NCBI GenBank assembly: GCA_964389675.1
Contig: CAYMEV010000012.1
Coordinates: 1 to 39,328, forward strand
Direction: 5' to 3'
DNA: 39,328 nt
Origin: an uncultured Candidatus Sumerlaeota bacterium
GTDB lineage: Bacteria > CAYMEV01
This document shows positions 5,787 to 22,613 of the stretch, piece after piece. The position numbers were made by a program, and so were the translations under genes. Under the pieces are notes generated by a model, which was not told the DNA's origin, did no database searches, and saw nothing but the letters and a program-made list of their open reading frames with translations. The stretch's first letter is position 1. Each line of letters starts with the position of its first letter.

Positions 5787-7423
5787 TTATCCCTTTCCTC
5801 AGGCAAAAATATTGAAAATGAAGTCCCTGTATTAATCTGAGTATCCACCTCTATCCATCCATCATGCATGTCAATAATGGAATTGACAACCGCAAGCCCT
5901 ATACCGAAACCCTCTTTCTTGCCCGTAAGGAAGGGCTTGAAAATATATGAGAGCCTGTCCTTGTCAATACCCTTTCCATTGTCCTGTACCTTCAGACATA
6001 AATATTTCCTCTCTTCTGAGGATGTGTTTGCAGTATCAGCCGGGACCCTGCTCTCCCTGCTTATGCCTACCCTTATTATACCATCTTTATCAACCGATTC
6101 CAGAGAATTTTTAAGCAGGTTCCACAGGACCTCCTTTATCTGCTCAGCATCCACAGAAATATAGCATTGTTCATCGGTTTTTTCAAATATAAGCTTTGCA
6201 TTGCCTTTTACGGAGTTTTTGAATAAAAAGAGGACCTCGTCCACAAGGGCACTAATGTCCGTTATTTCTTTCTGCGGCTTTTTCAGCCTGGTATATTCAA
6301 GGAACTCGCTAAGCTTCCTGTTGAGCCTGTTGCTCTCCTTAAGCAGTATGTCTATAAGCCTTTTGGAATCCCCCTCAGCCTTTATGTCCTCATTCAGTAT
6401 CTCAATGCTGTTTATAATGGAGGATAATGGGTTCCTTATCTCATGGGCGACCACTGCAGAAAGCTCTCCTATTGTGGCAAGCTTCTGCTTCATCCTGACT
6501 ATGGATTCGAGCCTTTTTATGCCGGTAAGGTCCTGAAGGTTGATAAGCTTGCCTATGGTGTTATGGCTGCTGTCAAAGAGCCTTGTCGTTACTATCCCTA
6601 TATATATGGCATTGCCATCCCTTTCATACTCTATTTCAGTCCTGAAACTATTTCCGTCAATCCGCTCAAAATCATTAAATATATCCCTTATATCCTTTCC
6701 AATAAATTCATCATGTTTTATTCCGAGTATTGCCTCTCCTGCATTATTAATAAGTGTGATCCTGTCATCAAGGTCTGTTGTTATGATCCCTGACCTGAGG
6801 CTCTGGAGTATATACTCATTAAAGAGTATAAGGTCATCTATATTCTTCTGCTTTTTCTCTATCTCCCTGCTGGCTGATTTTAATGCCTCGGAAAGATAGG
6901 ATGATAAAAAGCCTATTATTATAAAGCCTATGCCCTTGTATCCGACGGAAAATAATGCATTTAACAGGCTCACCCCTGCAGGCTTAATTAAAATTATATG
7001 GAGCCCCGATGTAATGGTGAAAAGAAGTATTGAGATTATGCTGAAATAGATCGTGCCCTTCCTCTGGAATATAATACCGGCAACTATTATGGTTATGGAA
7101 TATAGAAATGCAAAGGGGCTGTCATGCCCGCTGGTGAGGAAGACAACCCCGGAGATAATTAATGCATCCCCGAAGAGCTGTATTATTCCGAATGCCTTCT
7201 GTTTTATCCTCCTGTAGAGGACTGTATATATAATGGATAAAAGATATGTAAAGACTATTACTATGTAAAGGGGGCTTAATCCAAGGTGCTGGTCCGTATA
7301 GACCTGGACAAGGATGAATGTCCCGAGGATTATTGTTATTACAATTATCCTGTAGATTATGAAATTCTTAAGTATCTTGTCTTCCCTGGGGCTGTCCTGT
7401 GTCCTGTAGTTATGCTCTTTCAT
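5783..7423 (-). CDS. pilS: Membrane PAS sensor histidine kinase, PilS-like
   Basis: About 6 TM helices ('SPFAFLY'), PAS domain, H-box 'AHEIRNPL', 'DNGKGI' and 'GFGIGL'; ATGA overlap with pilR. Confidence 0.85.
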   Translation of the reverse strand: MKEHNYRTQDSPREDKILKNFIIYRIIVITIILGTFILVQVYTDQHLGLSPLYIVIVFTYLLSIIYTVLYRRIKQKAFGIIQLFGDALIISGVVFLTSGHDSPFAFLYSITIIVAGIIFQRKGTIYFSIISILLFTITSGLHIILIKPAGVSLLNALFSVGYKGIGFIIIGFLSSYLSEALKSASREIEKKQKNIDDLILFNEYILQSLRSGIITTDLDDRITLINNAGEAILGIKHDEFIGKDIRDIFNDFERIDGNSFRTEIEYERDGNAIYIGIVTTRLFDSSHNTIGKLINLQDLTGIKRLESIVRMKQKLATIGELSAVVAHEIRNPLSSIINSIEILNEDIKAEGDSKRLIDILLKESNRLNRKLSEFLEYTRLKKPQKEITDISALVDEVLFLFKNSVKGNAKLIFEKTDEQCYISVDAEQIKEVLWNLLKNSLESVDKDGIIRVGISRESRVPADTANTSSEERKYLCLKVQDNGKGIDKDRLSYIFKPFLTGKKEGFGIGLAVVNSIIDMHDGWIEVDTQINTGTSFSIFLPEERDK

Positions 7424-7427
7424 AAAG

Positions 7428-7448
7428 AGGGGGCTTTTTCAGCCCCCT
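7428..7448 (-). terminator. GC-rich hairpin between pilC and pilS (weak intrinsic terminator or attenuator)
   Basis: Perfect 8-bp stem AGGGGGCT/AGCCCCCT with a 5-nt loop, followed on the minus strand by CTTT and the pilS ATG. Confidence 0.5.
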
Positions 7449-7460
7449 TTATTATTCTTC

Positions 7461-8669
7461 TTATTTGGCTGCCATTTCCCCGATAAGCTTGAACTGAGGC
7501 ATATACATGGCTATGACTATAAAGCCTATTATTGTCCCCAGAACAACTATCATCAGTGGCTCCATCAGGGATGTCAGGTTGGCTACGGCAACATCAACCT
7601 CTTCCTCATAAAAGTCAGCGATCTTCTGAAGCATTGTATCAAGCGCGCCTGTCTGCTCTCCTACCCCTATCATTGATACGACCATAGGCGGAAACTGGTC
7701 TGTCTCCCGCAATGGCTCTGATATGCTCTTTCCTTCTGATATGCTCTCCCTGGTCCTCATGATCGCCTGCTCAATTATGGCATTGCCGGCAGTCCTTGCT
7801 GTGATCTCAAGGGCATCCAGTATGGATACGCCTGAGGATATAAGCGTCCCGAGAGTCCTTGTAAAACGGGATATGACTATCTTTCTTGTAAGTTCGCCTA
7901 TAATTGGTGAATTCAGTATCAGCTTATCTATGAAGAACCTTCCGTTCTTGGTCTGATAGTAGTAATAGATCAGGACACCGATGCCTATAGAAACAGCAAT
8001 TATAATTAGTATATAATCCTTTACAAAGTAGCTCATGTTGATGACAAAAAGGGTCATGCCGGGCAGTTCTGAACCCAGGCCCGTGAATATCAGCGCAAAT
8101 GTCGGTATAACCCAGATCATCAGGATAATAACAACAACAACTGCTATTGAGATAATGACTGCAGGGTATGTCATTGCGCTCTTTACCTGCCTTTTGAGTG
8201 TCACGGACTTCTCAATGTATGTTGAGAGCCTCTGGAGTATGGTGTCCATGATACCTCCTGTCTCACCTGCTTCTATCAGGTTGGTGTAAAGGGCATCAAA
8301 TACCTTGGGGTGCTTCCTTAATGAATCTGCAAATGTCATGCCCTCTTCCACGCTTGCCTTAACCTGGTATAATACCTCCTGGAATCTCTTGTTCGTCTGT
8401 GAATGGGCAAGGATCTCAAGACACTGGACTATTGGAAGGCCTGCGTCTATCATAACGGAAAGCTGTCTTGTAAAGACTCCGAGCTCTTCCTTCTTTACCC
8501 CGCTACCGAGGGTAGGAAGCCTTATCTCCTTTGCCTTCGGTTTGACAGATGTGACTATTACCTTCTGCTTCCTCAGGATCTCAATGACTTCTTCTTTTGT
8601 ATTGGCAGATATGACACCAGACTGGGATTTACCTGCCCTTGTCCTGCCTTTCCATACAAAATTCTTCAT
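7461..8669 (-). CDS. pilC: Type IV pilus inner-membrane platform protein
   Basis: Two T2SSF repeats ('FTRQLSVMIDAGLP', 'AGETGG', 'AMTYP', 'VGEQTGALD', 'LMEPLMIVVLG'). Confidence 0.95.
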   Translation of the reverse strand: MKNFVWKGRTRAGKSQSGVISANTKEEVIEILRKQKVIVTSVKPKAKEIRLPTLGSGVKKEELGVFTRQLSVMIDAGLPIVQCLEILAHSQTNKRFQEVLYQVKASVEEGMTFADSLRKHPKVFDALYTNLIEAGETGGIMDTILQRLSTYIEKSVTLKRQVKSAMTYPAVIISIAVVVVIILMIWVIPTFALIFTGLGSELPGMTLFVINMSYFVKDYILIIIAVSIGIGVLIYYYYQTKNGRFFIDKLILNSPIIGELTRKIVISRFTRTLGTLISSGVSILDALEITARTAGNAIIEQAIMRTRESISEGKSISEPLRETDQFPPMVVSMIGVGEQTGALDTMLQKIADFYEEEVDVAVANLTSLMEPLMIVVLGTIIGFIVIAMYMPQFKLIGEMAAK

Positions 8670-8712
8670 ATTACAGCCCCCTATATATAAGAATTAAATT
8701 AATATCTGCAAA

Positions 8713-9804
8713 TTATGCTTTTCTTACCGGTCTCTCAGAGACCTCCTTTCCGAACATCTGCATAAGCTCATCCTTGTTCATTGTCCTTGAAAGAGCCTCC
8801 TTCTGCGAAATAAGCCTTCTTTTGGCCAGGTCATACAATGACTGGTTCATTGTCTGCATGCCAGAGGTTGTCTGCCCTGACTGCATATTGCCGTAGATCT
8901 GGTGGATCTTGTCCTCCCTGATGAGGTTCCTTATTGCAGCGTTCGGGACCATTATCTCCAGGGCGCATATCCTGCCTTTTCCGCTTGCCCTTGGGATCAG
9001 CTGAAGGGAAAGGACACCCTCAAGTACGAAGGAAAGCTGTGCCCTTACCTGAGACTGCTGGTGGGATGGAAAAACGTCGATTATCCTGTTTATGCTCTCA
9101 ACGCAGGAGTTGGTATGCAGTGTTGCAAATGTAAGGTGGCCTGTCTCTGCTATGGTCATGGCAGCCTCTATTGTCTCAAGGTCCCTCATCTCACCGACCA
9201 GGACGATGTCCGGGTCCTGGCGGAGTATGGACCTCAGCGCCCTCTTGAAGGAGTGTGTGTCCTGGTGGACCTCCCTCTGGTTCACAAGGCAGGATTTGTG
9301 CTTGTGCAGAAACTCTATCGGGTCCTCTATTGTAATTATATGTGAGCGCCTTTCTGCATTTATCTTGTCTATCATTGCGGCAAGAAGGGTTGATTTTCCG
9401 CTTCCTGTAGGGCCTGTAACAAGTATCAGCCCTTTTGGGCGGTCTGCCAGCCTCTCTACTGATTTCGGTATTCCCATCTCGTCAAAGCCCATTATCCTGA
9501 AGGGGATTGTCCTTACTGCCGCTGCCACAGCATTCCTCTGATAGAATACATTGCACCTGAACCTTGAAAGCCCCTTTAATGCGAAGGAAAAGTCAAGCTC
9601 CTTCTCTTCCTCGAACCTGTGTTTCTGTGAATCACTCAAAACACTGTATATAAGCTGTTTTGTCTGCCCTGGGTCAAGCGGCGGAAGGTCCATGGGATGC
9701 ATTATCCCGTCAATTCTCAGCACAGGGGGCGATCCCGTCGTGATATGCAGGTCGCTTCCCCCCTGGTCTATCAGGGTCTTGAGAAGGCTTTTCATATTTA
9801 TCAT
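8713..9804 (-). CDS. pilT: Type IV pilus retraction ATPase
   Basis: Walker A 'GPTGSGKST', 'TIEDPIE', 'LRQDPD', 'GEMRD' and the PilT signature 'AIRNLIRE'. Confidence 0.97.
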   Translation of the reverse strand: MINMKSLLKTLIDQGGSDLHITTGSPPVLRIDGIMHPMDLPPLDPGQTKQLIYSVLSDSQKHRFEEEKELDFSFALKGLSRFRCNVFYQRNAVAAAVRTIPFRIMGFDEMGIPKSVERLADRPKGLILVTGPTGSGKSTLLAAMIDKINAERRSHIITIEDPIEFLHKHKSCLVNQREVHQDTHSFKRALRSILRQDPDIVLVGEMRDLETIEAAMTIAETGHLTFATLHTNSCVESINRIIDVFPSHQQSQVRAQLSFVLEGVLSLQLIPRASGKGRICALEIMVPNAAIRNLIREDKIHQIYGNMQSGQTTSGMQTMNQSLYDLAKRRLISQKEALSRTMNKDELMQMFGKEVSERPVRKA

Positions 9805-9816
9805 TATATTAACTCC

Positions 9817-11508
9817 CTATTTTAGAGTAATCTTCAGTACTTCATCAATGGTAATCATACCCTCTTTGACCTTTTTCAGGCCGCTTTCGCGGAGGGTAAG
9901 CATTCCTTCAGACCTGGCTATCTCCCTTATCTCAAGAGAGCTCTGTCCGGAAAGTATTGCCTCTTTTATGCCGTCTGTTATGGGCATTACCTCATAGCAG
10001 GCTATTCTTCCCTTGTTCCCTGTATTATTGCATGTTGGGCATCCTGTGCCCTTGTAGAACTTGAATGTGCCTATCTCCTCCTTTTCAAATCCGAGCTTCA
10101 GGAGGGACTCTATCGGGGGTGTCGGGATCTCTGTCTTGCAGTCCTTGCATATCTTCCTTGCAAGCCTCTGTGCAAGTATCAGCAGGACCGAGGATGATAC
10201 GAGGAAAGGCTCAACGCCCATGTTAAGCAGCCTGTTGACGGTACTCGGCGCATCGTTCGTGTGAAGAGTGGACAGGACCAGGTGCCCTGTAAGGGCGGCT
10301 TTTACGCCTATCTCTGCAGTTTCAAAGTCCCTTATCTCTCCAACCATTATTATATCAGGGTCCTGGCGCAGAAAGCTTCTTAATGCGCTTGCAAAGTTAA
10401 GGCCTATCTCATCCTTCATCTGTACCTGGTTTATGCCCTTGATATTGAACTCGACCGGGTCTTCAGCGGTCATTATATTGGTCTCCACCTGGTTCAGCTG
10501 GTCGAGGGCTGAGTAAAGGGTGGTCGTCTTTCCGCTACCTGTGGGGCCGGTGACAAGGACCATGCCATAGGGCTTTTTTATTGCTTCCTGAAAGTCATCC
10601 ATGGCCTTTTTCTCAAAACCGAGTTTGGTGAGATCCAGCTGGAGATTGGACTTGTCCAGGATCCTCATTACTATTTTCTCCCCATGTATGCATGGAAGGC
10701 ATGAAACACGAAGGTCAACATCCTTTCTCTGGACCCTGATCTTGATCCTTCCGTCCTGCGGAAGCCTCTTTTCTGCAATATCAAGATTGGCAAGGATCTT
10801 AAGCCTCGATGTAATGGCATCCTTGAGCTTCAATGGCGGTGTCATGTATTCATACATATCACCGTCAAGCCTGTACCTTATCCTGAAATTCTTCTCATAG
10901 GGCTCGACATGGATATCGCTGACACCTCTCTTGACAGCTTCATTCAATACAAGGTTTACAAGCCTTACAACAGGTGCATCTGTGGTGGATGCCTCCAGCG
11001 AAGCAAGGTCAATGTCCTCTTCCGTTTCCTCAACTACCTCGAGCATATCCTCCTCGAGGTCTTCCATTACCTCGGCAAGGACATTGGTTGAACCATAGAA
11101 CTTGTCTATGGCTGTGCGGATGGCTGCCTCTGATGACACTACAGGCTCAACATTATACCCTGTCATAAACTTTATGTCATCAAGGGCAAAGACATTGGAA
11201 GGGTCCGACATGGCTACAGTAAGGATAGCCCCTGTCCTGGTGACCGGTATGACCTGGTATTTTCTGGCTGTTTCCTCGGGGATAAGCCTGATGACGCTTT
11301 CCTCGATGTCAAAGCTTGAAAGGTTGATGGAAGGGACATTATACTGCTTGCTTAAAAAGCCTGTGACATCTTCTTCGTCAATATATCCGAGCTTTACAAG
11401 ATTGTACCCTACCCTGCCGCCGTTCTTCTTCTGTTCATCAAGGGCTTTCTGGAGCTGTTCTTCTGTTATCAGGCCGGCCTTTATTAATTCATCACCTAAT
11501 TTCAGCAA
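9817..11508 (-). CDS. pilB: Type IV pilus assembly ATPase
   Basis: MshEN-like N-term 'KLGDELIKAGLIT', 'PQDGRI', Walker A 'GPTGSGKTTT', 'TAEDPVE' and the tetra-Cys Zn motif (CKDC...CPTC). Confidence 0.97.
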   Translation of the reverse strand: MLKLGDELIKAGLITEEQLQKALDEQKKNGGRVGYNLVKLGYIDEEDVTGFLSKQYNVPSINLSSFDIEESVIRLIPEETARKYQVIPVTRTGAILTVAMSDPSNVFALDDIKFMTGYNVEPVVSSEAAIRTAIDKFYGSTNVLAEVMEDLEEDMLEVVEETEEDIDLASLEASTTDAPVVRLVNLVLNEAVKRGVSDIHVEPYEKNFRIRYRLDGDMYEYMTPPLKLKDAITSRLKILANLDIAEKRLPQDGRIKIRVQRKDVDLRVSCLPCIHGEKIVMRILDKSNLQLDLTKLGFEKKAMDDFQEAIKKPYGMVLVTGPTGSGKTTTLYSALDQLNQVETNIMTAEDPVEFNIKGINQVQMKDEIGLNFASALRSFLRQDPDIIMVGEIRDFETAEIGVKAALTGHLVLSTLHTNDAPSTVNRLLNMGVEPFLVSSSVLLILAQRLARKICKDCKTEIPTPPIESLLKLGFEKEEIGTFKFYKGTGCPTCNNTGNKGRIACYEVMPITDGIKEAILSGQSSLEIREIARSEGMLTLRESGLKKVKEGMITIDEVLKITLK

Positions 11509-13146: not shown

Positions 13147-14307
13147 TTAGTCGAAGCTTCCCCTCTTTATAAGCTCTCCTGCTATAACAAGGCTCTGTAT
13201 CTCGTTTGTGCCCTCAAATATGCGGTTTATCCTTGAATCCCTGTACATCCTTTCAACGGGGTAATCCTGCATATAACCTGCTCCTCCAAATACCTGCATG
13301 GCCATATCAACTATCTCATCAAGGGCTTCCGAACAGAAAAGCTTGCAGATCGCTGCCTGCTTCTTAAACTTCTTTTTGTTGTCAACCAGGTTTGCTGTCC
13401 TGTATACCATGGATTCCATTGCATAGGTCAGCGAAGCCATCCTTGCAATCTTCTCCTGGTTGAGCTGGAATGAGTTAATTGGTTTGTCAAACTGCACCCT
13501 CTCTGATGCAAACTTGAGGGTGAGCTCTATAAGCTCCTTGGCAGCGCCGAGACAGCCCGCGGACAGGCTTATCCTGCCATAGTCAAGGGTTTCCATTGCC
13601 ACCCTGAAGCCTCTGTTTCTCTTTCCCATAAGGTTCTCTACAGGTACCTTTACATCTTCGAAAAAGAGCTCAACAGTATGGCTTGCCCTTATGCCCATCT
13701 TCTTTTCGACCTTTCCGACCTTTACGCCTTCTGTCTTTTTTGGTTCGACTATGATCGCTGATATTCCCCCGGGCTTGATTATCTCAGTATCTGTAAGGGC
13801 AAACAGGACAAGCACATCGCAGATATCGCCGTTGGTTATCCATTGCTTTGAGCCGTTTATTATGTAATTGTCGCCGTCCGGGAGAGCTCTGGTCCTGATC
13901 CCGCCGGCATCGGAGCCTGCTGTTGATTCAGTCAGGCCGAATGCCCCAAGGTATTCACCTGTTGCCATCGGCTTTAAGTATTTTTCCTTCTGTTCAGGAG
14001 AACCGAACAGGCTGATCGACATGGCTGCCAGCCCGAGATGGGCGCCGAGCATGGTAACAAAACTTCCGCATCCCCTTGAAAGCTCTTCTAAAAGGACGCA
14101 ATAGCCTACCTCGCCCATTCCCCCGCCATCATACTCTTCCGGAAGGCTCACGCCGAAAAAGCCGGCTTCCTTTGCTTTCTCAACAAGTACCGGGTCAAGG
14201 GCACTGTTGAGGTCTGCCTCGGCAGCCCTCGGCTTAATTTCCCTGTCAGTAAACTTCTTTGCCATTTCTCTGAGCATATAATGCTCTTCTTTTAAGATAA
14301 ACTCCAT
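13147..14307 (-). CDS. Acyl-CoA dehydrogenase (short-chain/Bcd-like)
   Basis: 'FGLTESTAGSD', 'NGSKQWITNG', 'KMGIRAS', 'RVQFDKPI' and the catalytic Glu in 'IFEGTNEIQ'. Confidence 0.93.
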   Translation of the reverse strand: MEFILKEEHYMLREMAKKFTDREIKPRAAEADLNSALDPVLVEKAKEAGFFGVSLPEEYDGGGMGEVGYCVLLEELSRGCGSFVTMLGAHLGLAAMSISLFGSPEQKEKYLKPMATGEYLGAFGLTESTAGSDAGGIRTRALPDGDNYIINGSKQWITNGDICDVLVLFALTDTEIIKPGGISAIIVEPKKTEGVKVGKVEKKMGIRASHTVELFFEDVKVPVENLMGKRNRGFRVAMETLDYGRISLSAGCLGAAKELIELTLKFASERVQFDKPINSFQLNQEKIARMASLTYAMESMVYRTANLVDNKKKFKKQAAICKLFCSEALDEIVDMAMQVFGGAGYMQDYPVERMYRDSRINRIFEGTNEIQSLVIAGELIKRGSFD

Positions 14308-14334
14308 ATTAATACTCCTGAAAATTTATTATAA

Positions 14335-15198
14335 TTAGTATTTATAAAAGCCCCTGTTTGATTTGAGCCCCAGGTATCCTGCATCAACCATCCTTTTTAG
14401 GAGTATGGAAGGCTTGTACGAAGGCTCTCCAAATTCCTCATAGAATATATTCTGCACTTTAAGTATTACATCAAGCCCCACCATGTCAGCAAGCTTCAAG
14501 GGTCCCTGCGGAAGGCTGGTCGCAAGCACCATTGCATTGTCAATGTCCTCTGCAGATGCAACATTGAGCTCAAGCAGCCTTATTGCTTCCCCTATCATGG
14601 GGACCAGTATCCTGTTCACTATGAACCCTGGTGTATCCTTGGCAGAAACGGGCTCTTTGTCTATTGCCCTTATGAAAGCCATTGATTCTTCCATGGTCCT
14701 GTCATCTGTCAGGTACCCCCTGACCACTTCTACAAGTTTATTATAGAAAGCAGGATAGAAGAAATGAAGCCCTACAAACCTTGATTTTATTTTCAGGCCT
14801 TTTGCAAGCTCCGTTATTGACAGGGATGAGGTATTGCTTGCAATGATGCATTGCTCTGAAATTATATTTTCAAGCTTCTTGAATATCCCGTCCTTTATTG
14901 CCTTTTCCTCAAAAACGGCCTCAATGACCAGCTCCCTGTCTGAGAAATCATCAAGGCTTGCTGAAAGGACAAGGCTTTTTTCAAGCATGGAGGCCCTTTC
15001 AGGGGAAAGCACAGCCCTTTTCAGGGATTTCTGAATATTTTTTATAAGCCTTGAATGTGATGATCTGGCAAGGTCATCATTTATATCAAAGATCTTTATA
15101 TCAAAACCTGCCATCAGGATGGACTGGGCAATCTGGGAGCCCATTGTCCCAAGGCCTATAACACCTATTTTCTTTATTTTTGATTCTTTGTTTTCCAT
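14335..15198 (-). CDS. hbd: 3-hydroxyacyl-CoA (3-hydroxybutyryl-CoA-like) dehydrogenase
   Basis: Rossmann 'GLGTMG', 'VIEAVFE', 'ASNTSSL', catalytic His in 'GLHFFYP', 'PGFIVNR' and 'GPLKLADMVGLD'. Confidence 0.85.
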   Translation of the reverse strand: MENKESKIKKIGVIGLGTMGSQIAQSILMAGFDIKIFDINDDLARSSHSRLIKNIQKSLKRAVLSPERASMLEKSLVLSASLDDFSDRELVIEAVFEEKAIKDGIFKKLENIISEQCIIASNTSSLSITELAKGLKIKSRFVGLHFFYPAFYNKLVEVVRGYLTDDRTMEESMAFIRAIDKEPVSAKDTPGFIVNRILVPMIGEAIRLLELNVASAEDIDNAMVLATSLPQGPLKLADMVGLDVILKVQNIFYEEFGEPSYKPSILLKRMVDAGYLGLKSNRGFYKY

Positions 15199-15213
15199 AT
15201 CCCTGCCTTTCCT

Positions 15214-16461
15214 TTATTCTTCATACCTTTTTATTACGAGAGAACCATTCTGCCCACCGAAACCAAATGAATTCGAAAGCGCATAGTTTATCCTGTAATC
15301 CCTGTATCTGTTCGCAACATAATCAAGGTCGCATTCAGGGTCCTTTTCCTCATTGTTTATTGTAGGATGCAGAAAATTTTCATTTATCTGAAGGACAATG
15401 GCAATGAATTCAAATGCGCCTGCAGCCCCGAGCATATGCCCTACCATGCTTTTCGTAGAGTTTATGGGTATATTGTACGCCCTCTGGCCGAACAGGTTCT
15501 TTATTGCCCTGGTCTCAATGGAATCATTGAATGGTGTGGATGTCCCGTGAGCGTTTATATAGTCAATATCATCAAGGCTTATGCCTGCATCCCCTACAGC
15601 CCATTTCATGCATTTATAGGCGCCCTTGCCCTCAGGGTCGGGAGCTGTTATATGATATGCGTCTGCCGACATGCCATAACCGATTATCTCGGCATATATA
15701 CGGGCATTTCTCCTTTTTGCATGCTCAAGCTCTTCAAGAACCACAGCTGCTGCACCCTCTGCTATTACAAATCCTGTTCTCCTGTTGTCAAACGGCCTTG
15801 ATGCGTATTTCGGGCTTTCATACTTGCTTTCATCGGCAAGTGCATTAATTACATTAAAGCCTGCAAGGGAAAGCGGGTTTATAGCTGATTCGCATGCTCC
15901 GCCCAGTACCATGTCAGCATATCCGTCCCTGATCAGGTGGAATGAATCGCCTATTGCAATTGTACCTGTGGCACATGCGGCAACAGGAGCCTTATTCGGC
16001 CCTTTTGCGCCTATTTTTATGGATATATTGCCTGGTGCTTCATTTGCAACAATTTTTGGTATGTGAAACGGACCTACAGATTGCCAACCTGATTCAAGCA
16101 TCTTTTTATGGTCCTCAAGGAGCGTGTTCACGCCCGCAATACCTGAACCGTATACAACTCCAAGCCTGTCATTGTCATAATCTGTGTCTTTCAGGCCTGA
16201 ATCAGCAAATGCCCTTATACCGTTTATCAGTGACATGGAACAGAAGCGGTCAAGCCTCTTTATCTCCTTTTTTGACAAATGCTCCTCCGGCCTGAAATCC
16301 CTGACCTCTCCCCCTATAGTAACAGGAAGGTCATCATTCTCCTTCGTGAGTGACAGATAGTCAATGCCTGAGACTCCCTGCTTCAGGCTTTCCAGTATTG
16401 TATCCTTATTCGAACCTATAGGGCTGAATGCATCTATCCCGGTTACTACTACTCTTCTCAT
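15214..16461 (-). CDS. fabF: Beta-ketoacyl-ACP synthase II
   Basis: 'MRRVVVTG'; Cys-His-His triad ('AACATG', 'HGTST', 'GHMLG'); 'NSFGFGG'. Confidence 0.93.
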   Translation of the reverse strand: MRRVVVTGIDAFSPIGSNKDTILESLKQGVSGIDYLSLTKENDDLPVTIGGEVRDFRPEEHLSKKEIKRLDRFCSMSLINGIRAFADSGLKDTDYDNDRLGVVYGSGIAGVNTLLEDHKKMLESGWQSVGPFHIPKIVANEAPGNISIKIGAKGPNKAPVAACATGTIAIGDSFHLIRDGYADMVLGGACESAINPLSLAGFNVINALADESKYESPKYASRPFDNRRTGFVIAEGAAAVVLEELEHAKRRNARIYAEIIGYGMSADAYHITAPDPEGKGAYKCMKWAVGDAGISLDDIDYINAHGTSTPFNDSIETRAIKNLFGQRAYNIPINSTKSMVGHMLGAAGAFEFIAIVLQINENFLHPTINNEEKDPECDLDYVANRYRDYRINYALSNSFGFGGQNGSLVIKRYEE

Positions 16462-16480
16462 TTATAACCTCCTGTTTTGT

Positions 16481-17476
16481 TTAGATAATCCATCTAAGCA
16501 ATGCTCCCGCTGCAACAAGGCCTGCTCCGAAAGATGAAAGGCATACAAGCTGTCCCTTCTTCAGCAGGCCCTTCTCATACATTTCTCCGAGGCAAATGGG
16601 GATTGAAGCTGAGCTTGTATTTCCGAACCTGTCAATATTGGTGTAGAATTTGCTGAAATCCACATTCATCCTCTTTGAAGAGCTCTTAATAATTCTTATG
16701 TTTGCCTGATGAGGGACAAACCAGTCAACATCCTCAATATTATAGGGTGACCTGTTTATGCAGTCCATTGACATATCCTCAAGAGCCCCGACAGCAAACT
16801 CAAACACAGGCTGTCCCTGCATATGGAGGTAGACCTCTTTGTTCTTTATGGAATCCTGATTAAAGGGCCTGTATGTACCTCCCCCGATCGCTGTGATCAT
16901 TTCTGTCCCTTCGCCGTCAGCATAAAGTTTGGTTGCCATTATTCCCTCTTTTTCTTCCTCGACAGCATCCACTATTACAGCACCTGCTCCGTCACCGAAG
17001 AGAACGCAGGTATTACGGTCATCCCAGTCTGTGTAATGGGAGAGTATTTCCGTACCGATCACGAGGATTCTCTTGAAATTTCCGCCTCTTATGAAAGCAT
17101 CGGCAATGCTGAGTGCATATAGAAATCCCGGACAGGCGGCGGTAAGGTCAAAACAGGCTGCATTCACCGCGCCGATCTTCTGCTGAAGGTAGCATGCAGT
17201 TGACGGGCACAGCCTGTCAAAAGATATGGTCGCTATCATTATAAGGTCTATGGTTTTGGGGTCTATATTTGCATTTTTGATTGCCATATCTGCTGCATAA
17301 TAAGATATTTCCGATGTTGTCTGTCCTTCTTTTATTATGCGGCGCTCCTTTATTCCAGTTCTTTTTATTATCCATTCATTTGTGGTATCAACCATCTTTT
17401 CAAGGTCAAAATTGGTCAATATCCTTTCAGGTACATAATAACCGACTGACGTGATGCCAGCTCTTATTCCAGACAT
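16481..17476 (-). CDS. fabH: Beta-ketoacyl-ACP synthase III
   Basis: 'RTGIKERR'; Cys-His-Asn triad ('AACPGF', 'HQANIRI', 'GNTSSAS'); 'LFGDGAGA'. Confidence 0.93.
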   Translation of the reverse strand: MSGIRAGITSVGYYVPERILTNFDLEKMVDTTNEWIIKRTGIKERRIIKEGQTTSEISYYAADMAIKNANIDPKTIDLIMIATISFDRLCPSTACYLQQKIGAVNAACFDLTAACPGFLYALSIADAFIRGGNFKRILVIGTEILSHYTDWDDRNTCVLFGDGAGAVIVDAVEEEKEGIMATKLYADGEGTEMITAIGGGTYRPFNQDSIKNKEVYLHMQGQPVFEFAVGALEDMSMDCINRSPYNIEDVDWFVPHQANIRIIKSSSKRMNVDFSKFYTNIDRFGNTSSASIPICLGEMYEKGLLKKGQLVCLSSFGAGLVAAGALLRWII

Positions 17477-17479
17477 ATT

Positions 17480-18235
17480 TTAACTCCCGGCATTTAAGTT
17501 TTTTATTTTTTCGATGGATCTTTCATTCCACAGACTGAGGAATGATTCCTTCTCCAGGCTAAAATAGCCTTCGTCTTTTTTATTGAGATAGCTGTACAGC
17601 TTCTTTATTGCCCTGATATTTTCATTATCCTTATTTATAATATCCCTGCAGAACCCGTTTGTCTTTTCCTCAAACTCAAGGCTGTCGTAAATGGCATTTG
17701 CAATACCTGCATTATATGCAAATTCTGCATCTATAATGCTCCCCTTCATGGTAAGCTCAAAAGACCTGCTTAATCCTATCTTTTTTGCAAGCTTATAGAA
17801 TCCTCCCCATCCAGGAAGAACCCCAATATTGGATTCCACCAGCCCAAGCCTGGCTCTTGTTGAGAGCAGGATAAAATCACATGACAGTGCAAGCTCAAAG
17901 CCTCCGCCAAGAGCATAACCCTGGACCGCTGAAATGCTTATAATGGGAAGATTGCTGATCCTGTCAAATACAGCGTTTCCTTTGTCTATAAACCTTCCGA
18001 TAGTCTCCCTGTCTGAATCTGCATATTCAGATATTGCCGCTCCAAGGGAAAATACCTTTCTGTTTCCCCTTATAACCAGAACGCTTGTTCCTTCATAGTC
18101 TATATTGCTTAATAAAGAATCAATTTCATCTATCAGGTCAATACTTATATAATTCTTATTTGGTGTTTTTGTTTTTATTTCAATATTCAGGATTTTGCCG
18201 TCTTTTGCGACAGCAATGTTTTCATATTGCTTCAT
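17480..18235 (-). CDS. Enoyl-CoA hydratase/isomerase (crotonase family)
   Basis: 'GYALGGGFELALSCD' and 'GLVESNIGVLPGWGG', with both catalytic Glu present. Confidence 0.88.
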   Translation of the reverse strand: MKQYENIAVAKDGKILNIEIKTKTPNKNYISIDLIDEIDSLLSNIDYEGTSVLVIRGNRKVFSLGAAISEYADSDRETIGRFIDKGNAVFDRISNLPIISISAVQGYALGGGFELALSCDFILLSTRARLGLVESNIGVLPGWGGFYKLAKKIGLSRSFELTMKGSIIDAEFAYNAGIANAIYDSLEFEEKTNGFCRDIINKDNENIRAIKKLYSYLNKKDEGYFSLEKESFLSLWNERSIEKIKNLNAGS

Positions 18236-18248
18236 GTTAAGACTCCGG

Positions 18249-18279
18249 ATAAGAAAGGGGGAACAGGCCCCCCTCTTAT
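18249..18279 (-). terminator. Intrinsic terminator-like hairpin after acpP
   Basis: Minus strand ATAAGAGGGGGG-CCTG-TTCCCCCTTTCTTAT: a G/C stem with a U-rich tail, between acpP and the crotonase gene. Confidence 0.55.
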
Positions 18280-18290
18280 TTTTTCAGTTT

Positions 18291-18524
18291 TCAGGATTTT
18301 TTTTCTTGGATATAGTTGACGAAATCTTTTACAGTGACTAATTTATTGAGGTCTTCTCTCTTAATCTCGACATCCCACTTTTCTTTAACATCCATTCCTA
18401 AATCCATGACATCAAGAGAATCAGCGCCTAAATCCTGCAGTGTTGTTGTTTCTGAGATCTCTGATTCATCTTTTTCGAACTGGTCTGCCAATAAAGCAAC
18501 AAATTCGCTGTAAATATCTGCCAT
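18291..18524 (-). CDS. acpP: Acyl carrier protein
   Basis: 77 aa, acidic; phosphopantetheine site 'LGADSLD'; strong AGGAGG RBS. Confidence 0.92.
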   Translation of the reverse strand: MADIYSEFVALLADQFEKDESEISETTTLQDLGADSLDVMDLGMDVKEKWDVEIKREDLNKLVTVKDFVNYIQEKKS

Positions 18525-18572
18525 TTATCTTCCTCCTATTTTATTTTTATTGTGAACATAAATTTTTTACAA

Positions 18573-18600
18573 ATAATAATTTTTTAAGATTTCATGTCAA
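18573..18600 (-). promoter_or_regulatory. Putative sigma-70 promoter of the acpP operon
   Basis: Minus strand TTGACA (18600-18595), 16-bp spacer, TATTAT (18578-18573). Confidence 0.5.
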
Positions 18601-18821
18601 TACTAATATTTTAATTATTAATCAAGATTTTTTTCATTATGTCTTTATATTACATTTTAAATAAAAGCAAAATAATTTTATGGCATCGGGATATAAATAA
18701 GCATCATCAGACTCAATTAAAGCCCCCGGGATTTTGAACCTTTTATAAATACCTGTATTATATGGTGTTTAAGTAAATTTATTACAGGCCTTAGACTGCC
18801 GGAAAAAAAAATTTGCCTCCT

Positions 18822-18875
18822 GGATTTTAAAAAATCCGTAAAAATGCGGTTTTTAAACTTTGAAAATTTTTCAAA
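18822..18875. repeat. Cluster of palindromes upstream of HTH-parA (candidate operator or centromere)
   Basis: GGATTTT-AA-AAAATCC (18822-18837) and TTTGAAAA-T-TTTTCAAA (18859-18875); extra GGATTTT half-sites at 18729 and 18888. Confidence 0.45.
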
Positions 18876-18880
18876 AAAGC

Positions 18881-18909
18881 TTGCTATGGATTTTTTCTTT
18901 TAGTATAGT
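18881..18909 (+). promoter_or_regulatory. Putative sigma-70 promoter for the parA-parB-rep module
   Basis: TTGCTA (18881-18886), 17 bp, TATAGT (18904-18909); a second candidate TTGATG-17-TATTAT lies at 19038-19066. Confidence 0.5.
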
Positions 18910-19125
18910 AAAAGGTGTAATTAATAAAGTGGTCTTATTAAATATTTTTAATTATGCTGTTTATCAATATTACAGGCTTTAGAAATTATAAGTCTATAAT
19001 ATAAAGCTATTTACAAATATAATATTATTATTGTTTTTTGATGACAGCTTTTTTTATTTGTATTATATATATTATTTCTTAACTGAATATTAATAATTTT
19101 AATATACTAAATTTTGGATAGTTCG

Positions 19126-20103
19126 ATGGATGATGACAGGTTTTATACAACCCAGGAGATAGCAGATCTTGTTGGAGTAAGCAAGAGTACTATCCTCAAC
19201 TGGTTAAAAGACGAAAAGATACCGATGCCGCAGAGAAACCTCCAGGGCTGGAGGCTTTTCTCCAAGGCCGACCTTGCAAAAATAAGGGAGATGATGGGAA
19301 TTTTCACCACAAACGGAAAATGCCACGTCATCACTCTCACAAACCAGAAAGGCGGATGCGGCAAAACCACCACAAGCATAAACTTAAGCGCATATTTTGC
19401 AATGGAAAATTATAAGGTCCTGCTTATAGACATGGATGCACAGGCACATGCAACAAAGACATTTGCAGAGGATTTCTTCTCCATAAAGAAGACAATATTC
19501 AATGTGCTCGTCAATCAGGCAAACCTTGAGGATATAATACTAAATACAAATATACCCAATCTGTTTATTGTTCCCTCTAATATAACCCTTGCTACGGTCG
19601 AGCCTCATTTATACACAAATCCTGACGGGTTTTTCAGGCTTAATATTGCTGTTGAAAAGCTTATCAAAAACAGCAGGTATAATTTTGATTTTATACTTAT
19701 AGATACTCCTCCAACCCTTGGAATGGCAACGCATAATGCTCTTATTGCTTCAAAATACGTTCTTATCCCCATTGAATCATCCTATTTTGCCCTGGAGGGG
19801 ACTGAGGACCTGCTTGATACTGTTCAGAGGATAAAAGCCAGGGCAAACCCTGAACTCAAGATACTGGGTGCTGTAATAACACTCCATGACCATCAGACAA
19901 TACTTGCAAATGATGTTAAGAAGAAGCTTCAGATTCGCTTTGGCTCAAGTCTGCTGAATACTTGCATAAGAAAGAATGTCAGGCTTAAGGAAGCTCCTGC
20001 TTCAGGTGAATCAATATTCACATATGCCGAGAAATCATCAGGTTCGAGCGATTATAAATCACTTGCAATTGAAATATTGCAGAGGCTGAAGGAAGAGAAA
20101 TGA
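19126..20103 (+). CDS. parA: ParA-family ATPase with N-terminal MerR/excisionase-like HTH (type Ia, plasmid/chromid-like)
   Basis: HTH 'YTTQEIADLVGVSKSTILNW...RNLQGWRLF'; deviant Walker A 'QKGGCGKTT', 'IDMDAQ' and 'IDTPP'. The ATG at 19126 is preferred over the TTG at 19114. Confidence 0.9.
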   Translation: MDDDRFYTTQEIADLVGVSKSTILNWLKDEKIPMPQRNLQGWRLFSKADLAKIREMMGIFTTNGKCHVITLTNQKGGCGKTTTSINLSAYFAMENYKVLLIDMDAQAHATKTFAEDFFSIKKTIFNVLVNQANLEDIILNTNIPNLFIVPSNITLATVEPHLYTNPDGFFRLNIAVEKLIKNSRYNFDFILIDTPPTLGMATHNALIASKYVLIPIESSYFALEGTEDLLDTVQRIKARANPELKILGAVITLHDHQTILANDVKKKLQIRFGSSLLNTCIRKNVRLKEAPASGESIFTYAEKSSGSSDYKSLAIEILQRLKEEK

Positions 20104-20999
20104 AGAAAAAGGGACTGCCACAGGAATATATCAAAAATACAAGTACCTTTATTGAACACCCTTCAGACCTTATACCCATACAGGACGGATTCTTCACATA
20201 CCTTGATATCAACAGCATAAAAATACCTGTTGAACAGGTAAGAAAGCATTTTGACGAACAGGGGATGGAGGAACTAATTCAGTCAATAAAACAGAACGGG
20301 CTTATTCAGCCTGTAATTGTCAGGGAGGATAATTCAAGCATATACCTGGTATCCGGCGAAAGAAGGCTCAGGGCGTGCAAAAGCCTTAAAATAGAGCAGA
20401 TACCTGCCATATTCACAAATAAGAACCCTGATATCATTTCTCTTATAGAGAACCTGCAGAGGGAAGACCTGACCCCTTTTGAAGAGGCATATGCATACAG
20501 CAGCCTTAAGATGAAGTTTAAGGTAACATTATCAGACCTTTCAAGAATGGTTGGCAAGGATTACAAGTATATTAGCAGAATAATGAGGCTTATTGAGCTT
20601 CCTGACTCTATCAAGAATGAATTCGTGACATCACGAATTTCAAAGGAGCTTCTTATAAGGATATCACAGATAAATGACAAGCAGGAACAGCTCAGGATAT
20701 GGAATATACTAAAGACAGGGGAATTCACTGTAAAAGAGGCAAAAAAGATACTTAAAACAAGGAAAAAAAGGGGCTCAAACCTTTTTAACAGCGCAAAGGT
20801 CCATAGATATATAAATACTATACAAAATGAGATAAGAAAGCTTCCAGAAGAGGACGTTCTGGATAATGCAGAAGAGATGGAATCATTTATAAAAGCGCTT
20901 GAGGACTTCATAGAAGGCCTGAAAAAACGGATAAATAAGAAGGATAAGTACCTGTTATCGGATAATGGGGTAAATAATTCGGATAATGGGTTAAAATAA
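20100..20999 (+). CDS. parB: ParB/RepB/Spo0J-family CTPase partition protein
   Basis: 'GLIQPVIV', CTP-binding 'GERRLRA', 'IENLQREDL' and an HTH; ATGA overlap with parA. Confidence 0.9.
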   Translation: MKKKGLPQEYIKNTSTFIEHPSDLIPIQDGFFTYLDINSIKIPVEQVRKHFDEQGMEELIQSIKQNGLIQPVIVREDNSSIYLVSGERRLRACKSLKIEQIPAIFTNKNPDIISLIENLQREDLTPFEEAYAYSSLKMKFKVTLSDLSRMVGKDYKYISRIMRLIELPDSIKNEFVTSRISKELLIRISQINDKQEQLRIWNILKTGEFTVKEAKKILKTRKKRGSNLFNSAKVHRYINTIQNEIRKLPEEDVLDNAEEMESFIKALEDFIEGLKKRINKKDKYLLSDNGVNNSDNGLK

Positions 21000-21087
21000 A
21001 TCAGATTATGAGATATTTTTATTTGATTTCTGAGATAAATTTAATCGTATTCCGGGGTAAGAAAAATTGGTTTCTGAGATAAATTTT
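20957..21087 (+). repeat. Six degenerate ~17-bp direct repeats with 21-22 bp period (iteron-like origin array)
   Basis: Starts at 20957, 20978, 21000, 21022, 21044 and 21066: atcggataatggggtaa, ttcggataatgggttaa, atcagattatgagatat, tttgatttctgagataa, atcgtattccggggtaa, attggtttctgagataa. T2, T7, G11, G13, T15 and A16 are invariant. Confidence 0.75.
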
Positions 21088-21176
21088 AATATGTTTTATT
21101 CGTATTTTACCGATAAAATGAAATCATGTAATATATATTTAATTATATAAATAACAAATATTAACATATATAAACA
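21088..21176. other. AT-rich tract next to the iteron array (candidate DNA-unwinding element)
   Basis: Nearly all A/T over 21129-21174, with 10-bp-phased ataacaaata/ttaacatata/taaaca units; lies between the repeats and the rep start. Confidence 0.55.
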
Positions 21177-21194
21177 GGGACTGGGAGATCATAT

Positions 21195-22613
21195 TTGCAG
21201 GCTGTTAATAAAAATCAAAAGCATCTGATTTCAAAGGATGAAATGAATCTTGTAGAGTTTCCCTTTGCCCTCCTGTCGAACAGGCACCCGCTCAACAGTT
21301 CAAAGACCCTTATTTTCAGCGATGAGATCAGAGGGCCCATGAATGCTAAAATACTCAGGGAATGGGTAGTAACGGGTTCTGATATTCACGGCCTGCCTCT
21401 CAGCATGGATGAGGAGCTTCTTCTGGGTATCCTCTATCTTGGGCATTTATCGAAATTTGACGGGCCTGAGGTATATTTTATAAAGAAGCAGGTCCTGGAT
21501 GTCCTGAAATGGGGGACAAATAAACAGTACTATAAAAGGCTTGAAATGGGTCTTGCAAGGCTTAAGGGAGTCTCAATATTTGCCAAAAATGCCTTCTGGG
21601 ATAATGCTACAAAAAGCTATACTACCGTGGGTTTCGGAATAATAAGTGATTTTCTCCTTAAGAATGACGGCAAGGGAAGGAAGAGCAATGCCATTGACAA
21701 AGAGGATATGTCCATGGTCACACTTGACAGGTATATTTACAGAAGCATAAAAAGCGGTTATATAAAATCCCTTGATTTTTCCTTCTGGGTTGATCTTGAG
21801 ACCTCCGTATCAAAGAGGCTTTTCAGGTACCTTGATAAGAAATTTTTCAGGGATAACTGCTTTGAGATAAATATTGACAAGCTTTGCCATGAAAAGCTCG
21901 GACTCAGCAGAAATATAGTATACAGGTCAAGCATGATGCAGAAGATAGAGTCTGCAATAAGTGAGCTCGTTAAGAAGGGATATCTTCAGAGATATAATCT
22001 GAAAGGGGATAATATACAGTTCATAAGAAGCGAAAGGTTCAACAGGGGTATAATACAGGCAGGCGCTCAGAGAGATTTTTTTGAGCATTCCTCTATTATC
22101 GGCGAGCTTAAAACACTCGGTTTTGATGATAATTCATGCTTCTACCTTATTAAAAGGGATCCGGACAGGCTAAGGTCAGCTCTTAACATATATTATGCAG
22201 AAAAGAACAAGAGGTTTGAGCATGGCAAGGATCCCATAGCGAACCCTGTGGGCTATATCAGGAGGGTTTTTGATAATATAGGAGAAAATGCTCCTGGAAA
22301 TGGGGATAATCTTCTTAAAAAAGCAGAAACAGAAAAAGAAGGAAATGATATTTCAAGCGGGGATTTTAAGAAAGCTGACTCTATATGGAGAGCAATCCAG
22401 GATATCCTCTATGGCCAGGGCCAGAGCCAGGATGCCGATGACTTATCTGAATGGCTCAATCCCCTTGAAGCAGACAGGTTTTTCAATAATACACTCTACC
22501 TTAAAGTGCCTAATGAGATATACAGGAGATATATTGAGAGCACATACCTTGCATGTATATTTCAGGCATTAAAATCCATTGACAGGGCTTATTCAGTTCA
22601 GCTGGAAATATAA
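21195..22613 (+). CDS. repA: Plasmid-type replication initiator protein A with C-terminal DnaA N-terminal (domain I)-like domain
   Basis: N-term 'KDEMNLVEFPFALLS', 'GLPLSMDEELL' and 'KRLFRYLDKKF' are typical of winged-helix RepA/RPA initiators; 'IANPVGYI' motif; C-term 'IWRAIQDIL...WLNPL...NNTLYLKVPNEIYRRYIESTY' resembles DnaA domain I; TTG start after GGAG. Confidence 0.75.
   Translation: MQAVNKNQKHLISKDEMNLVEFPFALLSNRHPLNSSKTLIFSDEIRGPMNAKILREWVVTGSDIHGLPLSMDEELLLGILYLGHLSKFDGPEVYFIKKQVLDVLKWGTNKQYYKRLEMGLARLKGVSIFAKNAFWDNATKSYTTVGFGIISDFLLKNDGKGRKSNAIDKEDMSMVTLDRYIYRSIKSGYIKSLDFSFWVDLETSVSKRLFRYLDKKFFRDNCFEINIDKLCHEKLGLSRNIVYRSSMMQKIESAISELVKKGYLQRYNLKGDNIQFIRSERFNRGIIQAGAQRDFFEHSSIIGELKTLGFDDNSCFYLIKRDPDRLRSALNIYYAEKNKRFEHGKDPIANPVGYIRRVFDNIGENAPGNGDNLLKKAETEKEGNDISSGDFKKADSIWRAIQDILYGQGQSQDADDLSEWLNPLEADRFFNNTLYLKVPNEIYRRYIESTYLACIFQALKSIDRAYSVQLEI

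Follow-up and report, generated by a model that had tools for sequence, protein, structure and literature searches.

What could be built by an operon in which the condensing enzymes of fatty-acid synthesis are interleaved with a dehydrogenase, a hydratase and an acyl-coenzyme A (acyl-CoA) dehydrogenase of the beta-oxidation type? The question is raised by a 39,328-nucleotide stretch of DNA from an uncultured Candidatus Sumerlaeota bacterium (assembly GCA_964389675.1, contig CAYMEV010000012.1, positions 1 to 39,328; hereafter the window), the initial 39 kb of a contig that is 110.9 kb long, in a genome of 3.57 Mb, 58 contigs and 93.8% completeness. The minus strand of the window carries, from 18524 to 13147, genes for an acyl carrier protein (ACP), a crotonase-fold enoyl-CoA hydratase homologue (ECH), the ketosynthases FabH and FabF, an Hbd-type 3-hydroxyacyl-CoA dehydrogenase homologue and a Bcd-type acyl-CoA dehydrogenase homologue (ACAD), in the order acp-ECH-fabH-fabF-hbd-ACAD (Table 1). 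Here, we tentatively propose, with confidence somewhat short of even, that this operon is a module for reductive C2 elongation that works without a thiolase and whose products, butyryl or longer thioesters, would go to butyrate or lipids. The proposal is based on Hbd and crotonase needing a source of acetoacetyl thioester, on the genome having no detectable thiolase, and on FabH and FabF lying within the operon itself.

The initial annotation of the window had described these six genes with intergenic gaps of 55, 3, 19, 15 and 27 bp (in gene order), with intact catalytic residues, and with no fabD, fabG, fabZ, fabI, thiolase or CoA ligase among them. Gene content and gaps were reproduced exactly from the coordinates of the open reading frames (ORFs), the catalytic residues were found in all six proteins by a position check and by alignments, and the absences were borne out by a Pfam scan; the family of every operon protein was confirmed by Pfam and NCBIfam. 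A seventh gene, which that annotation did not mention, lies 14 bp past ACAD and encodes a histidine ammonia-lyase, and from the gene spacing we infer that all seven genes are co-transcribed as one unit. The genome set holds two species of this phylum, both of one genus, and the genome of the second (hereafter the sister genome) is 91% complete.

Table 1. Features of the operon and its immediate surroundings in the window (lengths in amino acids, aa).
Feature	Position	Strand	Evidence
Promoter-like site TTGACA-16-TATTAT	18573..18600	-	~49 bp upstream of ACP start codon; consensus match only
ACP, 77 aa	18291..18524	-	PF00550 44.9 bits; Ser36 in GADSLD motif
G+C-rich hairpin followed by T-rich tail	18258..18273	-	terminator-like match in the 55-bp gap after ACP
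Crotonase-fold enoyl-CoA hydratase homologue (ECH), 251 aa	17480..18235	-	PF00378 120.4 bits; divergent subfamily
FabH (KAS III), 331 aa	16481..17476	-	TIGR00747 378.7 bits (cut-off 292.1)
FabF (KAS II), 415 aa	15214..16461	-	TIGR03150 545.6 bits (cut-off 493.75)
Hbd-type 3-hydroxyacyl-CoA dehydrogenase homologue, 287 aa	14335..15198	-	PF02737 175.3 bits, PF00725 109.9 bits
Bcd-type acyl-CoA dehydrogenase homologue (ACAD), 386 aa	13147..14307	-	three ACAD Pfam domains; Glu365 in IFEGTNE
Histidine ammonia-lyase, 509 aa	11603..13132	-	TIGR01225 630 bits (cut-off 539.15); Ala141-Ser142-Gly143

Condensing and reducing enzymes

By equivalog model and by Arg261, FabH is a canonical ACP-type beta-ketoacyl-ACP synthase III (KAS III), for which condensing activity is predicted; Arg261 lies within HQANIRII, at what we take to be the position of the ACP-docking Arg249 of Escherichia coli FabH. 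The protein also passes the cut-off of NF006829 (405.2 bits against 249) and keeps the catalytic triad Cys115, His256 and Asn286 when aligned with its best match in the PDB, 2ebd (293 bits), presumably the Aquifex FabH. All 32 of its PDB matches at E <=1e-50 are named 3-oxoacyl-ACP synthase III, 3-oxopimeloyl-ACP synthase or PQS biosynthetic enzyme, and tblastn found no second KAS III (fabH) in the window genome. FabF has its triad (Cys163, His305, His342) and is 47% identical to the fabF product of a fabG-acp-fabF cluster on another contig (C1). The operon ACP scores over the cut-off of NF002150 (68.1 bits, cut-off 66) and under that of TIGR00517 (57.8 bits, cut-off 70.45), on which the ACP of contig C1 scores lower, at 50.5 bits. 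Compared with its best structural match, FabH has a 13-15-residue insertion at about residues 199-213 (window 16838-16882), just before YLHMQG, which is apparently kept in the sister species, since the tblastn alignment is gap-free and places residues 1-331 in 331 columns.

The enzymes that would complete the cycle are of a different descent. ECH has a PF00378 score of 120.4 bits, where three classical crotonases reach 234-259 bits, a score under the curated Crt model (NF004475, 121.8 bits, cut-off 394), and as best PDB match a 3-hydroxypropionyl-CoA dehydratase (5zai, 110 bits). Its subfamily reads FSLGAAI where classical crotonases usually read FSAGA(D/N)I, while Glu114 and Glu134 are invariant in both ECH alignments. 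In 5.8 billion proteins, the relatives listed besides ECH itself are five at 42-65% identity, three of which, at 56-59%, come from Logan contigs only; next come generic crotonases at <=39%, and the ESM Atlas matches are generic ECH clusters only. Hbd is likewise under its curated model (NF004474, 306.4 bits, cut-off 408), with Ser124, His145, Glu157 and Asn195 in invariant alignment columns, and in a quick tree the window and sister proteins paired on a long branch, the position of which was flagged as unsure.

ACAD, by comparison with its best PDB matches, resembles enzymes that we take to be the butyryl-CoA dehydrogenases, coupled to electron-transfer flavoprotein (Etf), of Clostridioides difficile (5ol2_C, 345 bits) and Acidaminococcus fermentans (4l1f_A, 315 bits); CarC (6fah_C) also matched, and presumably all three are Etf-coupled reductases of anaerobes. 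Its score against the prolyl-ACP dehydrogenase 4irn is 179 bits, and it falls far under the models for ACP-dependent relatives (MbtN 69.7 bits, cut-off 700; RedW 231.4, cut-off 650; PigA 227.8, cut-off 500). Being nearest to Etf-dependent butyryl-CoA dehydrogenases and far from its ACP-dependent kin, ACAD argues against the use of acyl-ACP without excluding it. No paralogues of ECH, Hbd or ACAD were found in the window genome by tblastn, so the trio stands without other beta-oxidation context. Judged by similarity, the reducing enzymes thus belong with CoA and the condensing ones with ACP; as to the carrier on which the reducing enzymes would work, similarity favours CoA and operon context favours ACP.

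Proposed reductive elongation without a thiolase

Two genomes were scanned for thiolase, and PF00108 (Thiolase_N) exceeded its cut-off in neither, nor did PF02803 (Thiolase_C) give a match in either. In addition, a tblastn search with the genuine thiolase of locus L056 returned 0 matches in the window genome, and the EtfA and EtfB of that same locus matched contig C9. What, then, might supply the acetoacetyl thioester? The genome's sole condensing enzymes are FabH and ketosynthases of the FabF type, two of which are encoded in the operon. We suggest that malonyl-ACP would be loaded by the unlinked FabD and condensed with acetyl-CoA by FabH, with FabF doing the same in later rounds, such that decarboxylative condensation would replace the missing thiolase. 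The Hbd-type enzyme would reduce the 3-keto group with NADH, the crotonase-type ECH would dehydrate the (S)-3-hydroxy intermediate, and the Bcd-type flavoprotein, together with the single EtfAB, would reduce the enoyl thioester, giving a butyryl or somewhat longer thioester. The likeliest fate of this product would be excretion as butyrate by way of a Ptb-like enzyme and butyrate kinase, serving as an electron sink while amino acids are fermented, a role that would account for the histidine ammonia-lyase gene in the same unit. An alternative or additional fate would be the priming of lipid synthesis; that the operon includes FabF and an ACP of its own hints at such priming or at more than one round. 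We infer the reactions, their direction, the Etf partnership, the product and the use of ACP or CoA by the reducing enzymes from the gene sequences; the reductive direction is plausible, given that ACAD is nearest to Etf-coupled reductases and that one EtfAB pair is present.

Genes for the remaining steps are scattered through the genome. A possible malonyl supply is offered by FabD and by a 1523-aa carboxylase-like fusion, encoded near hutU (contig C3, L044:9578-14149), that joins an AccA-like carboxyltransferase to biotin carboxylase domains. The Ptb-like protein (302 aa, 334 bits) is the product of the only PTA_PTB-family gene, which is not adjacent to that for butyrate kinase; the latter scores 498 bits against a cut-off of 289, and a separate acetate kinase is also present. 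Given EtfAB, a Ptb-like enzyme and butyrate kinase but no thiolase, a fatty-acid synthase is no likelier than a butyrate or other short-chain product. A glutamate or hydroxyglutarate route to crotonyl-CoA was rejected, as the window genome had no match to 2-hydroxyglutaryl-CoA dehydratase (HGD-D) or family I CoA-transferase (CoA_trans).

The sole EtfAB pair is on contig C9, unlinked to the operon. Immediately upstream of it are genes for NuoE-like and NuoF-like proteins and for a 1138-aa GltD/NuoG-like iron-sulfur flavoprotein (L029:8154-15620), a neighbourhood that suggests an electron-bifurcating complex.

Several points weigh against the elongation module. The whole of it is a prediction from gene sequences, and one in which the carriers do not match: the thioesters made by FabH and FabF are on ACP, while ACAD and Hbd look like CoA enzymes, and no ACP-to-CoA transacylase was identified. 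The Etf link is weak, EtfAB being unlinked, only 29-30% identical to a classical Etf partner of Bcd, and placed beside NuoEF-like genes. A malonyl-dependent route to butyrate costs ATP, and would therefore suit a fermenter poorly unless the disposal of electrons is its main purpose; Ptb and butyrate kinase could also serve branched-chain acyl-CoAs derived from amino acids. Since the two genomes are 93.8% and 91% complete, absences such as that of thiolase are probable rather than proven, and the searches for EtfAB, FabD and FabI covered the window genome only. Finally, with the operon in only two species, its conservation is shallow evidence.

The case for a possible fatty-acid synthase

Could the operon instead be a full fatty-acid synthase (FAS)? 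The initial annotation had proposed one complete elongation cycle in which CoA-type enzymes replace the reductive enzymes of type II FAS. The operon does encode one enzyme per step, with members of CoA-type families standing in for FabG, FabZ and FabI; the proposed outcome fares less well, with a butyrate product at least as likely and an ACAD that is CoA-like. Carried through to long chains, with all three enzymes working on acyl-ACP and the fabG-acp-fabF set mainly supplying (R)-3-hydroxyacyl-ACP for lipid A, such a hybrid synthase is in our view unlikely. It would draw on an operon that has its own ACP, an initiating and an elongating ketosynthase and one enzyme for each reductive step, that is the only place where FabH is encoded, and that lies near a probable replication origin with a strong promoter-like site upstream.

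The window genome has fabD (contig C11), a yceD...fabG-acp-fabF-rnc cluster on contig C1 that is also kept in the sister genome and that has lost plsX, fabH and fabD, a FabI-like protein on contig C4 (its best matches are all FabI models, at ~240 bits, below their cut-offs), and two FabG-like genes outside the operon. The canonical reductive steps are thus largely encoded elsewhere, which argues against the hybrid synthase. FabK was not found in the window genome and was rejected as the enoyl reductase, its best match reaching 30 bits against a cut-off of 453. In the same genome, FabG-like, ketosynthase and chain-length-factor-like ketosynthase genes lie directly upstream of ispG (contig C6, L013:6085-9244), with 67-73% identity in the sister genome.

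For the dehydration step, no canonical FabZ, FabA or MaoC dehydratase was found in either genome. The sole relative of FabZ, a FabZ/ApeI-like hot-dog protein of 116 aa, is encoded between lpxD and lpxA (contig C5, L014:8389-8739); its GHFP...PGIMLISLGI stretch is invariant, the N-terminal part usual in such proteins is missing, and a serine occupies the expected site of the catalytic glutamate, a site that we take to correspond to the catalytic Glu of FabZ. Just two relatives of it (114 and 115 aa) are present in 5.8 billion proteins, and the His motif is kept in all three members. The lack of a canonical dehydratase, together with a 114-116-aa relative that has GHFP but Ser for Glu, favours the hybrid synthase; with its His motif kept in 3/3 members, however, this protein may still be active. 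The initial annotation had held that a complete canonical type II FAS elsewhere would count against its proposal, and on this the genome is divided: fabD, fabG-acp-fabF-rnc and the FabI-like gene are present, but there is no second fabH and the FabZ relative is atypical. Of the genes that it had named for a genome-wide search, fabG, a FabI-like gene and one EtfAB pair turned up, whereas FabK and canonical FabZ or FabA did not.

The divergence of ECH and its FSLGAAI stretch could reflect a change of carrier, and the ACAD family includes an enzyme, the prolyl-ACP dehydrogenase 4irn, that works on an ACP-bound substrate; FabM, FkbI and FkbK are presumably further members of the crotonase, ACAD and HAD families active on carrier-protein thioesters. 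On the other hand, the operon's ACAD resembles CoA-dependent Bcd much more than it does any relative that depends on ACP, and whole-protein isoelectric points (pI) lack a consistent shift towards an ACP-binding surface, that of Hbd being 6.78, where 71 homologues have a median of 5.46, and those of ACAD and ECH not being shifted relative to their homologues, of which there are only 11 and 2, respectively. PlsX, which passes acyl groups from acyl-ACP to PlsY, is absent from both genomes, which also counts against the hybrid synthase.

PlsY-GpsA is present despite the missing PlsX, and the Ptb-like enzyme might supply acyl-phosphate to PlsY; the Ptb-like and PlsY genes are on contigs C7 (L230:7636-8544) and C17 (L231:6742-7332). 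A stronger version of the synthase idea makes the operon the main FAS of the cell, with no FabZ route, the FabZ-like protein a decayed relic, energy possibly saved by flavin-based electron bifurcation, the Ptb-like enzyme feeding PlsY in place of the lost PlsX, and FabG serving mainly lipid A. We consider this combination distinctly unlikely.

Conservation, known systems and surroundings

The sister genome keeps the whole operon arrangement, split across two contigs, and a metagenome contig resembling the sister species has ECH-FabH-FabF-Hbd-ACAD on one piece. Identity to the sister species is 93-94% for ACP, 65% for ECH, 87% for FabH, 84% for FabF, 76% for Hbd, 89% for ACAD and 75% for the lyase, with ECH, Hbd and the lyase as the fastest-evolving genes and ECH as the most diverged. 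The ratio of nonsynonymous to synonymous substitution rates (dN/dS) is 0.03-0.11 for all seven genes, which are thus under purifying selection; as dS is saturated (1.1-2.4) and the order is nevertheless kept, the arrangement is not due to chance. An assembly chimera is also unlikely, because each gene junction is spanned, with 0-3 differences, by low-depth contigs from two other sediment runs.

Beyond this genus the arrangement was not encountered. In a scan of Hbd loci across ~185,000 species genomes (best 80 of 408 relatives, 38-49% identity), ACP, FabH or FabF was found in the flanks of the nearest Hbd relatives at 0 of 80 loci, while by our own row count ECH was nearby in 44 and ACAD in 17. 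In a metagenome scan with an ECH profile (best 80 of 565 relatives), the operon was found at two loci, both like the sister species, and fab genes lay near none of the other 78. The operon was hence found in other lineages at 0 of 158 loci, and no natural operon of a like kind was found in the literature (open-access papers and bioRxiv). So far, it is confined to one genus of a two-species phylum. Conservation across genomes, which the initial annotation had proposed to test, is narrow: the cluster is kept in the only sister species and was found nowhere else (0/80 and 0/78 loci).

These data bear on the null reading, that two separate modules share one promoter: a housekeeping acp-fabH-fabF set and a CoA-level crotonase/Hbd/Bcd set fed crotonyl- or 3-hydroxybutyryl-CoA from another source, their interleaving being a historical accident. 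We find this unlikely. In its favour, every protein looks ordinary for its family, with normal catalytic residues, and FabH, being the only KAS III in the genome, must also serve normal lipid synthesis; moreover, the loss of plsX, fabH and fabD from the cluster on contig C1 points to a reshuffling of fab genes during the evolution of this lineage. The genome also encodes CoA-level short-chain enzymes, namely the Ptb-like protein, butyrate kinase, an MmdA-like sodium-pumping decarboxylase and three FadD-like ligases. Yet without a thiolase, Hbd and ECH would have no classical entry or exit at acetoacetyl-CoA, and the window genome has no 2-hydroxyglutaryl-CoA dehydratase or family I CoA-transferase to feed crotonyl-CoA. 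The genes are, in addition, interleaved rather than just adjacent, their order is kept at saturated dS, and neither the 80 loci of Hbd relatives nor the 78 generic ECH loci have fab genes nearby.

Returning to the elongation module, the operon is a novel combination of known pathway parts. It shares its three reducing enzyme families and their catalytic residues with the clostridial-type butyryl-CoA operon, crt-hbd-(thl)-bcd-etfB-etfA. Of three classical loci that we annotated, two read ECH-Hbd-ACAD-EtfB-EtfA and one ECH-Hbd-thiolase-ACAD-EtfB-EtfA; the window operon has fabH-fabF within the same frame in which that one locus holds thiolase. It differs from the clostridial type in that its genomes are without thiolase, etfAB lies elsewhere, the operon incorporates ACP, FabH and FabF, and ECH and Hbd fall below the curated Crt and Hbd cut-offs. 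Compared with type II FAS (FabD/H/F/G/Z/I and AcpP), ACP, FabH and FabF are regular members, and the cycle is the same one of condensation, reduction, dehydration and reduction; the difference is that the reductive enzymes of the operon come from beta-oxidation and butyrate families. Those families are (S)-specific, NADH-dependent and flavin- or Etf-dependent, whereas FabG, FabZ and FabI are, respectively, a short-chain dehydrogenase/reductase (SDR), a hot-dog protein and an SDR.

The same principle underlies an engineered design. In a cyanobacterial butanol pathway, malonyl-CoA condensation by NphT7 replaces the thermodynamically unfavourable thiolase step and is followed by Hbd/Crt or PhaB/PhaJ and by Ter (PMC4700068, citing Lan and Liao 2012). 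A decarboxylative condensation of the KAS III family feeds Hbd/Crt-type enzymes there, as it would in the window operon; the NphT7 pathway is synthetic, runs on CoA esters throughout and ends in Ter, whereas the window has a canonical FabH, adjacent ACP and FabF, and a Bcd-type enzyme. An archaeal ACP-independent fatty-acid synthesis uses a ketothiolase/DUF35 pair, a ketoacyl-CoA reductase, a hydroxyacyl-CoA dehydratase and an enoyl-CoA reductase (bioRxiv 10.1101/2024.07.05.601840). There, beta-oxidation-related enzymes build acyl chains, as is proposed here; with its thiolase and no ACP, it is the mirror image of the window operon, which has ACP and decarboxylating ketosynthases and no thiolase. 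ACAD-fold enzymes that work on carrier-protein thioesters exist in the prolyl-ACP dehydrogenases and MbtN, from both of which the window ACAD is far. Methoxymalonyl-ACP is made by fkbGHIJK (PMC6022917); the window operon has no FkbH-type loader.

If the operon is one working unit, it would be a natural counterpart of a design hitherto reported from metabolic engineering alone, the formation of butyryl chains driven by a decarboxylating ketosynthase rather than a thiolase, and it would in addition couple ACP-type condensation to beta-oxidation-type, Etf-linked reduction. That would bear on the interchangeability of ACP and CoA, on electron disposal by anaerobes where sediments offer little energy, and on bacterial life without FabZ. 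It would also provide a candidate set of Hbd, crotonase and Bcd enzymes that may accept ACP thioesters, as few, soluble and ordinary-looking proteins. Should the modules be independent, the locus would be no more than an unusual arrangement of genes from a phylum that has been little sampled. As it stands, such an operon in marine-sediment bacteria without thiolase suggests an undescribed route for building short acyl chains.

What of the histidine ammonia-lyase gene at the end of the unit? Cinnamate-derived starters occur in some polyketide pathways, and urocanate or an aryl acrylate might by analogy be activated, processed by ECH, Hbd and ACAD, and then used by FabH as a starter. The lyase gene runs in the same direction as ACAD, from which just 14 bp separate it, and is syntenic in the sister species, and FabH has the insertion described above; we nevertheless hold this route to be very unlikely. 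The lyase passes the histidase equivalog model, and its top eight PDB matches are all histidine ammonia-lyases (361-395 bits), against 225-258 bits for entries of the tyrosine aminomutase and tyrosine ammonia-lyase (TAL) type. Urocanate hydratase (hutU) is over its cut-off in both genomes, away from the operon in each, which fits ordinary histidine catabolism, and the operon has no CoA ligase or adenylating enzyme. We reserve a small chance for an explanation other than the elongation module, the hybrid synthase, the two modules and this starter route.

Upstream of the unit, the promoter-like site in Table 1 was the top-scoring site of a regional promoter scan, matching at 11 of 12 positions. 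The hairpin in the gap between ACP and ECH is a possible partial terminator. At the other end, pilB lies 94 bp downstream of the lyase gene and has a promoter-like site of its own, again a consensus match only.

The operon probably adjoins a replication origin. Between the operon and divergent parA and parB is a 589-bp AT-rich spacer, within a region (window 18525-22613) that we regard as a candidate DnaA-less replication origin and at which the sign of the GC skew switches. Beside parA/parB is a gene for a 472-aa protein with a Pfam RPA (replication initiator A) domain and a C-terminal DnaA_N domain; this gene, parA and parB are syntenic in the sister genome, at 74-91% identity. No DnaA over the cut-off was found in the window genome, and the Bac_DnaA matches of both genomes are ORFs of ~250 aa only, the one in the window genome being DnaC/DnaI-like on scanning. 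Directly downstream of the operon is a type IV pilus cluster, pilB-pilT-pilC-pilS-pilR (window 4335-11508), with 81-96% identity in the sister genome.

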